A stretch of 64,000 nucleotides of DNA from the NCBI RefSeq assembly GCF_000026545.1, contig NC_011601.1, one strand, 5' to 3'. The position numbers were made by a program. The DNA is from Escherichia coli O127:H6 str. E2348/69. GTDB lineage: Bacteria; Pseudomonadota; Gammaproteobacteria; Enterobacterales; Enterobacteriaceae. Positions 24,001 to 45,000 of this stretch are shown in pieces. Positions within the stretch are counted from its first letter, which is position 1. Each line of letters starts with the position of its first letter.

Positions 24001-27000
24001 CGAATTAGTTAGCGGAATTTACGCCGATTCTCGCCTGGCGTCATCCCAAAGCGTTGTTTAAATACCGTTGAAAAATGACTCTGGTCGGAAAATCCCCAAT
24101 GAAAGCCAATGCCTGCCAGTTTTTCATCATCTGCGGCATGGCGAATCGCATCTGCACAAAAATCGAGACGACGGTTACGAATATATTGCGCGACCACCAA
24201 ACCTTTATCGGCAAACTTTATCAGCGCGTAGCGCCTGCTGCTGTAGCGTTCGTTAGTGAAAAAGATGAAACCTCGGTCGGTGAGCTGCCTTCGCCGGGTA
24301 GCCTGTATTTTCAACGTTTTGGCGGTTTGAATATTGAACAGGAGGTGTTAAGCCAATTTATCAGATAGACGGTCTGACTCCGATAGTAACAGAAGAGAGT
24401 TTTGTTCATCCGACAGAGGTATTGATCGGCGATGTTATTCTCGGCAAGGGCGTTTACGTTGGACCAAATGCCAGCCTGCGAGGTGATTTTAGTCGTATCG
24501 TGGAGAAAGATGGCGCGAACATTCAGGATAATTGCGTTATGCACGGCTTTCCCGGGCAGGATACTGTCGTTGAAGAAGATGGGCATATTGGTCATAGCGC
24601 TATCCTTCACGGCTGCAATATCCGCCGCAATGCATTAGTGGGAATGAACGCGGTAGTGATGGTCGGTGCGGTGATTGGTGAGAACAGTATTGTTGGCGCA
24701 TCCGCATTTGTGAAAGCCAAAGCAGAAATGCCTGCTAATTATCTGATTGTCAGCAGCCCGGCAAAAGCGATTCGTGAACTTAGTGAGCAGGAGCTGGCAT
24801 GGAAAAAGCAGGGCACGCATGAGTATCAGGTGCTGGTGACACGTTGTAAGCAGACGTTGCATCAAGTCGAGCCATTGCGGGAAGTTGAACCTGGCAGGCA
24901 GCGTCTGGTATTTGATGAGAATCTGCGACCGAAACAGTCACGTCCAGATGCTGAACGTTCTAATTTTTAGCATGTGATACCTTAACCGCAACGCTGATAC
25001 AGGTTGCGGTTTTTTATTGCCGGATGCGGTACTTGACGCGTTTTGTTTTGGTGTCTTTCAGGATATTAGAGCTACTCATCCAGTAATCTTGTTTACGCCT
25101 TCGCATTATTTATCTCTATTCATTTCTATACTGATTTTTCTTAATCCGTTTTATTACAGGGCAGGGTGCGATGAGCAGCAACACATTTACTCTCGGTACA
25201 AAATCCGTTAACCGTCTTGGTTATGGCGCGATGCAACTGGCAGGTCCTGGGGTTTTTGGCCCCCCAAGAGATCGCCACGTCGCTATAACCGTGCTGCGCG
25301 AGGCGCTGGCATTGGGCGTCAATCATATTGATACCAGCGACTTTTATGGTCCGCACGTCACCAATCAGATTATCCGCGAAGCGCTTTATCCGTACTCTGA
25401 CGACCTGACAATTGTCACTAAAATTGGTGCGCGGCGTGGAGAGGACGCTTCCTGGTTACCCGCATTTTCTCCGGCAGAGCTGCAAAAAGCGGTACACGAT
25501 AATCTACGTAATCTCGGCCTGGACGTACTGGATGTGGTTAACCTGCGCGTTATGATGGGGGATGGTCATGGCCCAGCGGAAGGATCGATTGAAGCCAGCC
25601 TTACCGTGCTGGCGGAGATGCAACAACAAGGCCTGGTAAAACATATTGGCCTGAGTAACGTCACACCGACGCAGGTTGCAGAGGCGCGAAAGATTGCCGA
25701 AATCGTCTGCGTGCAGAACGAATACAACATTGTCCACCGAGCTGATGACGCAATGATTGATGCTTTGGCTCGTGATGGCATTGCCTACGTGCCATTCTTT
25801 CCGCTCGGGGGCTTTACGCCGCTGCAATCCTCCACGCTTTCCGATGTTGCTGCGAGCCTTAATGCGACACCAATGCAGGTGGCGCTGGCGTGGCTGTTAC
25901 AGCGTTCACCGAATATTTTGCTGATTCCTGGCACCTCTTCGGTGGGACATCTGCGGGAGAATATGGCGTCCGATGAATTAGTGCTAACGGATGACGTGCT
26001 GGCAACGCTGGACAGTATTTCGCAAAAGGCGGGTTAAATAAAAAAACCTCCCACTTTCGTGCTGTCTCTTGATCAGATCTCCTGATCAAGAGACTTCATC
26101 ACCAGGTAACCCTCAACCATATCCTGAAGTCTGAACCAGCCATCCCACATGACTACCCAACCGGGGCGACCGGTGCGTTTGCTGTCATGCCATCGCCCCA
26201 GTTTCGCCAGTTTCAGACAGGCCCATTTCAGTGTCGGCATCTGTGACGGAAGCGGTTTTCCTTCCAGCTTAACCCACAGCAGTTTCCACTCTGTCGGCGT
26301 CAGTATTTTCTCACAGCTGTCATTTTGTGTTTCTTCACTGATACCGCCCTGCCGCAGGCCCAGCACCCGCACCGCGATAAACGCCTTGATAACCACCATG
26401 CGCTCGAGGTTATCCCGGGTCTGCATTCGCAGCGATTCCACACATGTACCACCACTTTTCCACGCCTTGTGGTATTCCTCTATCAGCCAGCGTCGCTCGT
26501 AATGGCTGACGATACGTCGCGCATCGGCGGCACTCGCCACTTTTTCTGACGTCAGCAGATGCCAGCAGGCGCCGTCCTCTGCCTGCTCCCGGCAACAGAC
26601 ATACGTGAGCGGGAGCGCCTGGCCGCTGTTGTCGGGATTTTTTATGCTGACTTCGCTGTAACTGATGAACATCCGGGCCTGGCGGGCTGCCCGCCCGCCT
26701 TTTTGCATCACATTCAGCGTGTGGCTTCCCGCGGTTGCCAGGACTTCCGGCAGTTCGAAGAGCTTGCCGGGTGCTTCTTCCAGCCGGCGATTCTGTGCTG
26801 CACGCACCACGAAGCGCTGCCCGTGGCTGACTTTATAATGCAGGTAATGCCAGATATCCGCTTCCCGGTCACAGACAGTGATTACCCGTTTCTGTATCTC
26901 CCCCAGCCGTTCGGCCATGCGCTCCGAAGCCTGCTGCCAGCGGTAACTTTCTTTTTCTTCATAGGGACGTTCTTTTCGCTGGTGCTTAACACCGTAGGTG

Positions 27001-42000: not shown

Positions 42001-45000
42001 GCGAGAGAAGAGGCCAGTGACACAAGGCGTCGTGTACGACGCGGATCACCGAGACGGGCATGTCCAAACTGCTCGTTAGCCCATGAATAACAATCAGAAA
42101 GTACCATAACAGACCCGAAGAAAATGAAATATAAGAGAAGATCAACGGGTGAGGAAAAAGTTCAAAAAATCGCTGCCGGGGAGGAAGGAAACTACCGGAT
42201 GGAAAGAGTCCCCCTAAAGCAGACTGACAGACATCACAAATCCCCGGGTGGGGATTTGTGTATAAGAGACAGCCTCTGTAAGAGCGGTATCGCTTGACCT
42301 TAATCGCTGCCTTCAGTGAGAGGATTCCCATCAGGCGCTGAACAGCTTTATGGTTAATCTGTTTCCCTTCTCGATGAAGAGACAGCGTTACCCTACGGTA
42401 TCCGTATCGGCCTCTATTCTCATGATAAATCTCACCAATACGCTTTTTAACGTCCGCATACTTGTCAGGCTTGCTGAGAGCCTTTAGATGGTAATAAAAC
42501 GTACTGCGCGGTATCTCCGCAGCCCTGAGAAGCTCATCAAGAGGATAAAACTGCCTTAGCTCGTTGAGTACTTTCACTTTTTCGTGGGATGAGCTAAGGC
42601 TTTCAGCTTTTTTAGATACACAAGCCGCGTTTCAAGAAATCGAACTTGCCTTTCAAGATCCTCAATGCGTCGGTCTTTTGACAGCTCCAATGCTGATGCC
42701 GCTTTTTCTGGATCAACTGATATTGCAATGTTTCTTTTGGTGCCAATCTTGAGCGCGCGTAAACCAGCTTCTCCGCGCTCTTCATAAACCTTCAGCCACC
42801 TGGCTACAGAACCACTACCAGCAAGCATAAAGTGAGCAGCAGCCTGATTAAGGGACATGTGCTGCTCGATCACAGCTTTCATGACCTTAATACGCAACTC
42901 AGGAGCAGCACTAACACCTTTAGGTTTGGGAATTAAACCTTTTTCTCCATGTTTTTCATAGAGGGCAACCCATGTCCTGACCTGGGTTCGGGGGACACCA
43001 AAACGTGCCGAGATGATCCTGTAACCATCATCAGTAGTGAAGTAGTGATTCACGACTTCAAGGCGCTTTTCAAAAGGGTATTTTGGCTTTGACATATCAG
43101 GGGCTATTCCATTTCATCGTCCAACAAAATGGGTGCAGTACAGTTGATAGAAATATCGGTCGGGGCCTTCGTCTTTCTGATTCCCGGTTAGCCTGAAAAC
43201 AGAAAGTCTCAGGCACCCGTGAGCATCCTATGTGGTTTCCTTAGGGTCGAAAATAATCACCTGACGAAATTGCGTGCTGTTTTCCAGAATTTTTCGTCAT
43301 TCGGTTTAGTCAGTTTAATCATTCGTTACTCTCGCAAGGCCGTGGATTTGCCGTTGTCGCCAGCGAAGTACGGACACTCGCAAGCCGCAGCGCCCAGACG
43401 GCGAAAGAGATTGAAGGCTTGATCAGTGAATCAGTCAGGTTAATTGACCTGGGATCGGATGAGGTGGCAACGGCAGGGAAAACCATGTGCACTATTGTTG
43501 ATGCCGTCGCGAGTGTCACACATATCATGCAGGAAATCGCCACCGCCTCGGATGAACAAAGTCGAGGCATAACGCAGGTTAGCCAGGCGATTTCTGAAAT
43601 GGATAAGGTGACGCAACAGAATGCTTCTCTGGTAGAAGAGGCCTCAACGGCAGCGGTGTCCCTTGAAGAACAGGCGGCACGATTAACTGAGGCGGTGGAC
43701 GTATTCCGTCTGAACAAACATTCTGTGTCGGCAGAACCTCGCGGAGCTTGTGAACCAGTTAGTTTTGCTACGGTGTGAAAATGTTAAAGGAGGGATCGAC
43801 AGATCCCTTCACCTTTCAGAACGGCATTGATTTTCGAATAGCGTTAATCATCAACTGGCAACCAGAAGAGAACGTCGCATCTACGCGGGTCAGTATTCCA
43901 ATCGGTTCGCCTGCACCATGTCCCGGAACAGGCAGGGCTACCAGCGTGGCATGACGCAGGTCGTCTTTTACAGCGCCAGAAGGGACAAACCACACGTAAT
44001 CGTATTCAACCGTAAGTTGACGAGATAGCGAAGCAGACAGCGTTTCGATACAACCCGAAGGAATTTTACATCCCTGGCTCTGCACTAATGCATCTGAATG
44101 CTGGCGTGGCGCAGTGCCTTCTGGTGATACAACGACCGGCCATTCCAGCACCCGGTTTAGCGTTACGTTCTCCTGAAGTAGCGGGTGATTGGGGCGGACA
44201 ACCAGCTTCAGCGATTCAAGAAACAGCAGTTCGTAATTAAGCCCGTTCATCAGTTCAGGATCTGACATCCGACCAATGCCGATATCGATTTCCCCGGTTT
44301 TTAAACCCGCCAGAATCATAGGGTTACTCATTGTCGCAACTTGCAAGGTCGTCTCTTTTTGTTGCTGATGAAACTGACCTATAACCGAAGGTAATATCCC
44401 TAGTGCCGCAGTAGGTAGCGCACCAACCCTGACGACATCATTATTAAGACCTTCTTTACGATGAAGCGACTGTCCGGCAGTGTTGATGGCGTCAAGAACT
44501 CTGACTGCATGCGTTAAAAATTGTTCGCCGGGTAAGGTAAGTTGCGCCCCCTGACGACCACGCTCAAACAAGCGAGCGCCCGTCAGCTGCTCCAGTTCAT
44601 TCAATGTCTTAGAGAGCGCAGGTTGACTCAAATTAAGGGTTTCAGCCGCGCGCCCCAAAGTTCCTTGTTGTGCGACAGCTACGAATGTATGAAGGTGGCG
44701 CAAACGGATGCGCTGACTAAACAGACTATTTTTTTCCATAAGCGATGTTAAAAACGAAGCGGTGTCGCTGACAAGTGAAGTTGTTTTATTATGATAACTT
44801 GATTGCAAAATATTATTAACAATTAAAGCAACTATGTTACAGCAAAATGGATAATATTGATGTTTTCGCGGCGAGATCACAGTTTGTAAATTCTTCCAGC
44901 CGGAGTGAATGCGGTTACCTACACTCCAGATTACTGACCACTGGAGGCAGACACTATGGCGAACAGCATCACGGCGGATGAGATTCGGGAACAGTTTTCG

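Follow-up and report, generated by a model that had tools for sequence, protein, structure and literature searches.

A stretch of 64,000 nucleotides (nt) from the chromosome of enteropathogenic Escherichia coli O127:H6 str. E2348/69 (contig NC_011601.1; hereafter the window) carries two identical copies, in direct orientation, of a mobile element of 1550 bp. We identify this element as ISEc13, a known insertion sequence (IS) of the IS50 (Tn5) subgroup of the IS4 family, and read the pair as two independent, lineage-specific insertions, a reading to which we give a probability of about 0.95. ISEc13 is already known, named and widespread, and the pair itself is ordinary. The only parts that might be new are the rule by which the element selects its targets and the variable length of the target duplications. 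The principal features, in coordinates of the window, are the following.

26062..27611, minus strand: ISEc13 copy 1, mobile unit of 1550 bp, recognised by identity to copy 2 and to annotated ISEc13 copies, with an inside-end-type terminus at the left and an outside-end-type terminus at the right
26073..27446, minus strand: transposase gene of copy 1, 457 aa, recognised from the list of open reading frames (ORFs) and from domain and structure matches
26052..26061: left target duplication of copy 1, 10 bp, CACTTTCGTG
27612..27621: right target duplication of copy 1, 10 bp
40723..42272, minus strand: ISEc13 copy 2, identical to copy 1 and nested in an IS150 copy
40734..42107, minus strand: transposase gene of copy 2, 457 aa, same sequence as that of copy 1
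40713..40722: left target duplication of copy 2, 10 bp, CCTCTGTAAG
42273..42282: right target duplication of copy 2, 10 bp

An exact base-by-base comparison of 26061-27612 with 40722-42273 yielded 100% identity over 1552 nt with zero mismatches, which bears out the initial annotation in its description of two sequence-identical copies in direct orientation, 13 kb apart. Identity ends abruptly at both sides and the flanks beyond are unrelated. The copies are spaced 14,661 bp from start to start (repeat finder, same register), with 13,111 bp between the cores, and they are direct repeats because the intact 457-aa ORF lies on the minus strand in both. Each of the terminal 19-mers occurs exactly twice in the window, where 0 occurrences are expected by chance. 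Of the 1552 identical nt, the G and the C at the extremes belong to the 10-bp target duplication of each copy, as its last and first base, respectively. The ends of the element, CTG...CAG (CTGTCTC...GAGACAG), were set by comparison with about 25 other copies that have differing flank bases, and the mobile unit therefore measures 1550 bp (26062-27611 and 40723-42272) instead of the 1551 bp originally given.

Copy 1 is flanked by the duplication CACTTTCGTG and copy 2 by a different one, CCTCTGTAAG, each 10 bp long. Removal of the element plus one duplicate results, at both sites, in the exact sequence of E. coli strain 2022H047 (locus L002). In this strain the empty site of copy 1 contains a single CACTTTCGTG, and the colinear alignment blocks between window and strain overlap by exactly 10 nt at each site. 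Separate duplications on the two copies, and the presence of both empty sites in a relative, show that the pair stems from two independent insertions rather than from a composite transposon or a segmental duplication. The pair is, formally, a composite-transposon-like unit with one inside and one outside end, and its outermost termini thus are of the two types that a single element uses. It is nevertheless hardly conceivable that these outermost ends brought in all 16.2 kb, from copy 1 across the block to copy 2, as a single composite transposon: the outer flanks differ, no single duplication surrounds the whole unit, and the block corresponds to a neighbourhood conserved in E. coli, pdxI...trg, that element-free strains have in the same place. 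An artefact of assembly or of segmental duplication, which would account for the perfect identity, can be dismissed with similar assurance. Identity stops exactly at the transposon termini, beyond which duplications and flanks differ, three separately deposited assemblies have the same colinear arrangement and both empty sites exist elsewhere.

These three assemblies, CP059840.2, LT827011.1 and LT903847.1, represent E2348/69 and derivatives. Among 5,426 complete E. coli genomes they are the only ones in which the 18.5 kb from 25000 to 43500 is found at 100% identity in one colinear piece, and the left junction of copy 1 is likewise present in 3 of the 5,426 genomes, the same three. Strain 2022H047 is 99.2% identical across the region; it is without ISEc13 and ISEc21, and two IS3-family elements are already present there, intact. 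As the junction is limited to the three E2348/69 assemblies, both insertions are recent and lineage-specific, in line with the recent transposition that had been proposed from the repeat alone. The identity of the copies itself says little about their age, since another E2348/69 copy (L015) is also 100% identical to them and copies in unrelated strains are 99.8-99.9% identical; identical ISEc13 copies are the norm in the E2348/69 genome. This leaves room for homogenisation by gene conversion among the approximately 30 genomic copies in place of recent transposition of both, an explanation that we deem improbable. Both insertions are absent from every other genome of the collection, the 99.2%-identical relative included, and hence are young in any case. 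Reciprocal exchange with other copies, moreover, does not agree with the duplications: they are intact and match at each copy, which shows that neither exchanged flanks with another one.

The identification as ISEc13 follows from the DNA of the window copies, which is 100% identical to loci annotated ISEc13 in E2348/69 and in other strains. The transposase gene under the 100% match is annotated as WP_000244358.1, 'IS4-like element ISEc13 family transposase', by the NCBI Prokaryotic Genome Annotation Pipeline, whose use of the name we take to originate from ISfinder. The 1552-nt query gave 3,444 matching records in the complete-genome E. coli collection. ISEc13 is full-length in 873 of the 5,426 genomes, everywhere with the same annotation, and is also present in plasmids of several genera. 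In about 2,100 additional E. coli genomes, and in many plasmids of the F type, the element is present only as fragments, for instance the last approximately 100 codons at 97% identity, and Shigella virulence plasmids carry remnants of about 60% identity. The chromosomes of the E2348/69 lineage have 30 (CP059840.2), 29 (LT827011.1) and 27 (LT903847.1) places that match ISEc13. Their sizes differ as well (4.94, 4.85 and 4.79 Mb), and together these differences hint at IS-associated change between laboratory lineages.

The 457-aa transposase matches the Pfam domains Tnp_DNA_bind, DDE_Tnp_1 and Dimer_Tnp_Tn5, the last with a score of 24.1 bits, under its 26.7-bit cutoff, and has a score of 514 bits with NCBIfam NF033590. 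It aligns end to end with structures of the Tn5 transposase (Tnp), with E=7e-84 for PDB 1MUH. In the alignment the catalytic residues D93/D193/E323 correspond with Tn5 D97/D188/E326 and the YREK residues Y316/R319/E323/K330 with Tn5 Y319/R322/E326/K333; no methionine is found in the ISEc13 transposase at M56, the start of the Tn5 inhibitor. Identity to Tn5 Tnp amounts to 42% in a global alignment, for which the IS50L copy in plasmid pM172-1.3 served as reference, and to 39% by tblastn, hence the transposase is clearly diverged from Tn5 Tnp, as had been noted before. In our reading ISEc13 is an autonomous insertion sequence. Each copy encodes one transposase built like that of Tn5, in which a domain that binds the ends (N-terminal) is followed by the catalytic DDE/YREK core and by a dimerisation domain (C-terminal). 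By analogy with IS50/Tn5, the element is predicted to transpose by cut-and-paste with a hairpin intermediate.

The termini and the hairpins that accompany them are listed for copy 1.

26062..26080, plus strand: inside-end-type terminus CTGTCTCTTGATCAGATCT, which agrees with the Tn5/IS50 inside end at 19/19 positions
27593..27611, minus strand: outside-end-type terminus CTGTCTCTTATACACAAAT, matching the Tn5 outside end at 17/19 positions and the mosaic end likewise at 17/19
26064..26094: end-proximal palindrome with a 13-bp stem and a 5-nt loop, found by inverted-repeat detection and folding
27574..27599, minus strand: hairpin adjoining the outside end, CACAAATCCCC-ACCC-GGGGATTTGTG, read inward, terminator-like, z=-5.3

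The 19-mer CTGTCTCTTGATCAGATCT is also found in a Tn5 remnant, where IS50L joins aph(3')-IIa, and, as in IS50, includes the stop codon TGA of the transposase. It has two GATC (Dam) sites and the adjoining palindrome has a third, which by analogy suggests Dam control; methylation of these sites probably restrains the use of the inside end. Against the Tn5 outside end CTGACTCTTATACACAAGT, CTGTCTCTTATACACAAAT has mismatches at positions 4 and 18; its mismatches to the engineered mosaic end CTGTCTCTTATACACATCT are at positions 17 and 18. Both reference sequences were taken from PMC3347997, the outside end because the IS50L comparison copy (L003) is without it. The ends therefore are of the Tn5 type, as the initial annotation had it, and beyond them the DNA similarity between IS50 and ISEc13 is restricted to short patches. 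The stem of the palindrome at 26064-26094 consists of end positions 3-15 and their inverted copy and overlaps the last transposase codons, with a folding energy of -23.3 kcal/mol (z=-5.9). Both end hairpins recur in copy 2 at the same positions +14661.

Subgroup membership was evaluated according to De Palmenaer et al. (PMC2266710). Residues D93, D193 and E323 agree with the DDE spacing of the IS50 subgroup, D(60-110)D(100-150)E, and Y316, R319, E323 and K330 form the motif Y(2)R(3)E(6)K. A single transposase ORF of 457 aa spans the element, CTGTCTCTTGATCAGATCT and CTGTCTCTTATACACAAAT fit every specified position of the terminal consensus CW------Y---CA-A--W-, and the length of 1550 bp coincides with the upper limit of the size range (1350-1550 bp). 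IS50/Tn5 proper was rejected given the 42% aa identity of the transposase and an outside end that is off at 2/19 positions, the inside end alone being identical. The same data bear on the idea that laboratory work on a heavily manipulated strain left Tn5 or mini-Tn5 derivatives in it. The 19/19 inside end and the resemblance of the other end to both outside and mosaic end would agree with such an origin, which is nonetheless virtually excluded by the transposase identity of about 42%, the lack of a marker gene, the short patches of similarity to IS50 beyond the termini and the natural distribution of the element, full-length in 873 natural genomes as well as in plasmids of several genera. The proposal of a distinct IS50-group member therefore holds as far as the difference from Tn5 is concerned, but the element is not new, as it bears the name ISEc13 in the NCBI annotation.

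Several observations weigh against the identification of the pair as two recent insertions of an active ISEc13. The name rests on NCBI annotation and not on an ISfinder entry. The duplications of the window copies, 10 bp each, exceed the 8-9 bp stated for direct repeats of the IS50 subgroup (PMC2266710). A consensus scan detected no sigma-70-like promoter in or around copy 1. We infer activity of the element from intact ORFs, identical copies and the copy-number differences among the E2348/69 assemblies, that is, from sequence, and the identity of the copies could also be maintained by gene conversion, not by recency alone.

ISEc13 inserts almost only between 5'-CYCY and RGRG-3', usually in GC-rich and often in terminator-like hairpin stems. 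Insertion sites were gathered from CP148541.1 (10), from H99 (1) and from the best matches in other genomes (16, ranked by a query that includes the flanking G and C, by which some sites may be favoured), and 24 independent insertion events were left once shared sites had been removed. All 24 have a C/T-rich step to the left of the duplicated segment and the complement of this step to the right. Considering the 48 half-sites separately, position -4 is C in 48/48, position -2 is C in 48/48, position -3 is C or T in 47/48 and position -1 is T or C in 43/48, while the strict pattern CYCY-N7-11-RGRG is found at 5.6e-4 of the positions in the IS-free window. Targets of 31-35 nt fold far better than random windows (p=1.4e-13, Mann-Whitney). 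Relative to the 1550-bp unit, the duplication is 7 bp in one event, 8 bp in ten, 9 bp in eight, 10 bp in four and 11 bp in one; the lengths of 8 and 10 bp were checked against empty sites. Both insertions in the window fit the rule of 5'-CYCY, a duplication of 7-11 bp and RGRG-3'.

Most ISEc13 sites are intergenic and lie just downstream of genes, a location that could reflect the survival of harmless insertions instead of target choice by the transposase. We regard this as very unlikely, for selection cannot set the position of the cut to the nucleotide, and the C at -4 and -2 is invariant, in-gene insertions included. Survivorship alone provides no explanation because the insertions inside genes (dgcJ, tssH, IS150) follow the same CYCY/RGRG rule. 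In addition, the rcnB-yehA hairpin was struck in two strains at positions 2 nt apart (L016, L023), an offset which implies that the insertions are independent. Paralogous ibs terminators were each struck (L019, L026). At lysP-cirA (L020, L024, L025) and at ybaZ-ybaY (L007, L021, L028, L029), too, unrelated strains have ISEc13 in one and the same hairpin. The re-occupied hairpins at lysP-cirA, ybaZ-ybaY and ibs reflect either shared descent or reuse of a hot spot.

Elements related to ISEc13 were found in other genera. ISPlu9 (Photorhabdus), ISPpr3 (Photobacterium) and unnamed IS4-family elements of Vibrio and Serratia have transposases that are 51-72% identical, with the same type of ends. For the Vibrio element (P0092, L042-L051; transposase 52% identical) a duplication is present at 9 of 10 loci, and the tenth (L044), which has none, is probably recombinant. 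All nine duplication-bearing sites are located in terminators composed of an A-run, a GC-stem and a T-run, with AAGCCT as half-site and duplications of 9-11 bp. The site of the Serratia relative, a single copy (L041), fits the CYCY/RGRG rule. ISPlu9 (L031-L040, 57% identical) has only a weaker bias towards C-rich and G-rich flanks and sits inside genes; three of its copies (L035-L037) lie within an 8.87-kb tandem repeat.

Folding gave strong hairpins (z = -4.5 to -5.9) immediately inside the two ends of both ISEc13 and the Vibrio element. In the Vibrio relative the equivalent inside-end stem, of 14 bp, is kept with a compensating change, so the palindrome co-varies with the end sequence. For the Serratia relative only the outside end was folded, and a hairpin was found there (z = -2.9). 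In both the Vibrio and the Serratia element the outside-end hairpin takes the same place with a different stem, followed by U8 (Vibrio) or U5, and is like an intrinsic terminator that faces incoming transcription. Folding revealed neither end hairpin in ISPlu9.

Combined, these data allow a tentative reading, to which we would give somewhat less than even odds: ISEc13 and its relatives form a Tn5-like clade with an undescribed CYCY target rule, a stagger set by the hairpin and a 'safe-haven' strategy in which the element brings its own terminators. Each half of the synaptic complex would read a 5'-CYCY step and join immediately 3' of it on each strand. Insertions would thus land symmetrically in GC-rich hairpin stems, very often those of intrinsic terminators, and the stagger of 7-11 bp may be set by the hairpin rather than by a fixed 9-bp ruler. 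The element's own end hairpins could then replace the destroyed host terminator and shield the transposase gene from read-through. If true, the strategy would explain how E2348/69 tolerates about 30 copies of ISEc13. A natural Tn5 relative that picks hairpin stems by their sequence and with a flexible stagger also bears on target capture by Tn5-type transpososomes, on IS-driven terminator loss and read-through in pathogens, and on the design of less random or deliberately site-biased enzymes for tagmentation and mutagenesis. No prior description of the ISEc13 target rule was found in the literature searched, which contains only passing mentions of ISEc13 or of terminator- or hairpin-targeting elements of the IS50 group, and the supplements of PMC2266710 do not mention ISEc13.

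Compared with known systems, ISEc13 is nearest to IS50/Tn5. The two share the three-domain transposase with D-D-E and YREK residues, encoded by a single ORF that is read from the outside end towards the inside end, an identical inside end with its stop codon, and an outside end alike at 17/19 positions. They differ in the aa sequence of the transposase (about 42% identity), in the methionine at M56 that ISEc13 lacks, in the duplications, which are of 7-11 bp in ISEc13 and of a fixed 9 bp in Tn5, and in the strong hairpins beside both ends of ISEc13. The strong CYCY/RGRG hairpin rule also contrasts with the target consensus of Tn5, A-GNTYWRANC-T, which is weak. Two other IS4-family elements, IS231A with target GGG(N)5CCC and IS186 with target GGGG(N6-7)CCCC, resemble ISEc13 in their symmetric G/C-run targets and variable duplication length. 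They belong to different subgroups, however, and the polarity is opposite, as the target of ISEc13 has its C-run on the 5' side and its G-run on the 3' side, both outside the duplication. Insertion into extragenic palindromes has been documented for five IS families including IS4 (PMC1525189). ISRm22 (IS4 family), IS1397/ISKpn1 and IS621 target repetitive extragenic palindromes (REP) or bacterial interspersed mosaic elements (BIME), whereas the targets of ISEc13 are unrelated, unique hairpins, many of them terminator-like, that have only the CYCY...RGRG stem step in common.

Identical direct repeats of 1.55 kb are well suited to homologous recombination, by which RecA could delete the 13-kb block between them or duplicate it in tandem. 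The deletion or amplification that had been suggested for the pair is thus plausible, the more so given an inversion between two ISEc13 copies in CP148541.1, but none is realised in CP059840.2, LT827011.1 and LT903847.1: each aligns as a single colinear piece with neither deletion nor tandem duplication, in consensus assemblies where subpopulations are invisible. None of the bracketed genes is known to be essential in K-12, and loss of the block should therefore be tolerated. The pair is of local importance only, in that recombination between the repeats can remove or amplify the stretch of E2348/69 from azoR to hok. In CP148541.1 two inverted copies (L010 and L011, at about 2.304 and 2.364 Mb) lie 60 kb apart. 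Each is without a duplication of its own, and their halves match crosswise (CTGGTTCG and TTGGGGAG). The joint of L010-left plus L011-right is contiguous as fklB-cycA in 5,409 of the 5,426 genomes, and an ungapped comparison with one fklB-cycA genome revealed one single nucleotide polymorphism and a single CTGGTTCG. The swapped duplication halves and the fklB-cycA joint show an inversion of 60 kb between the two ISEc13 copies.

The remaining features concern the block between the window copies and the IS elements in it.

27622..40712: bracketed block with azoR, hrpA, ydcF, aldA, gap(C), cybB, the RydC small RNA (sRNA), ydcA and a hok-family toxin gene, as well as the left part of IS150 and an IS3-family element into which ISEc21 has inserted
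37848..39220, minus strand: ISEc21, IS110 family, 1373 bp, no target duplication, within the IS3-family element
40177..43095, minus strand: transposase region of IS150, divided by copy 2 into two fragments, approximately 40177-40722 and 42273-43095

In the RefSeq annotation of E2348/69, copy 1 occupies the spacer between pdxI and azoR, two convergent genes. It splits the azoR terminator hairpin AAAAAAACCTCCCAC-TTTC-GTGGGAGG, and the halves of its duplication are the split hairpin. Copy 2 is inside the IS150 copy, beside a truncated trg. There the elements pile up (37539-43095), with the ISEc21-interrupted IS3-family element followed by the IS150 that copy 2 interrupts, and the trg region of E2348/69 can be called an IS graveyard. 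Absence of ISEc21 from 2022H047 is evident from L002 positions 14288/14289, which are contiguous. The genes that the initial annotation had listed for the block, azoR to hokB, are present, but RydC, ISEc21, the IS3-family element and the part of IS150 had been overlooked, as had the nested position of copy 2.

An Rfam scan found no RNA family associated with ISEc13; its two hits, RydC and a sok-like RNA, lie outside the copies. The sRNA RydC is at 36829-36892 on the minus strand, downstream of cybB. The sok-type antitoxin RNA is at 43066-43218 on the minus strand, with the IS150 remnant to one side and the trg fragment to the other; the annotated hok gene (37308-37442) is several kb away. Upstream of pdxI, at about 24000-24970 (L001 2010-2971), only fragments of a helix-turn-helix gene and of paaX are left beside paaY, which suggests that most of the paa cluster was deleted in E2348/69.

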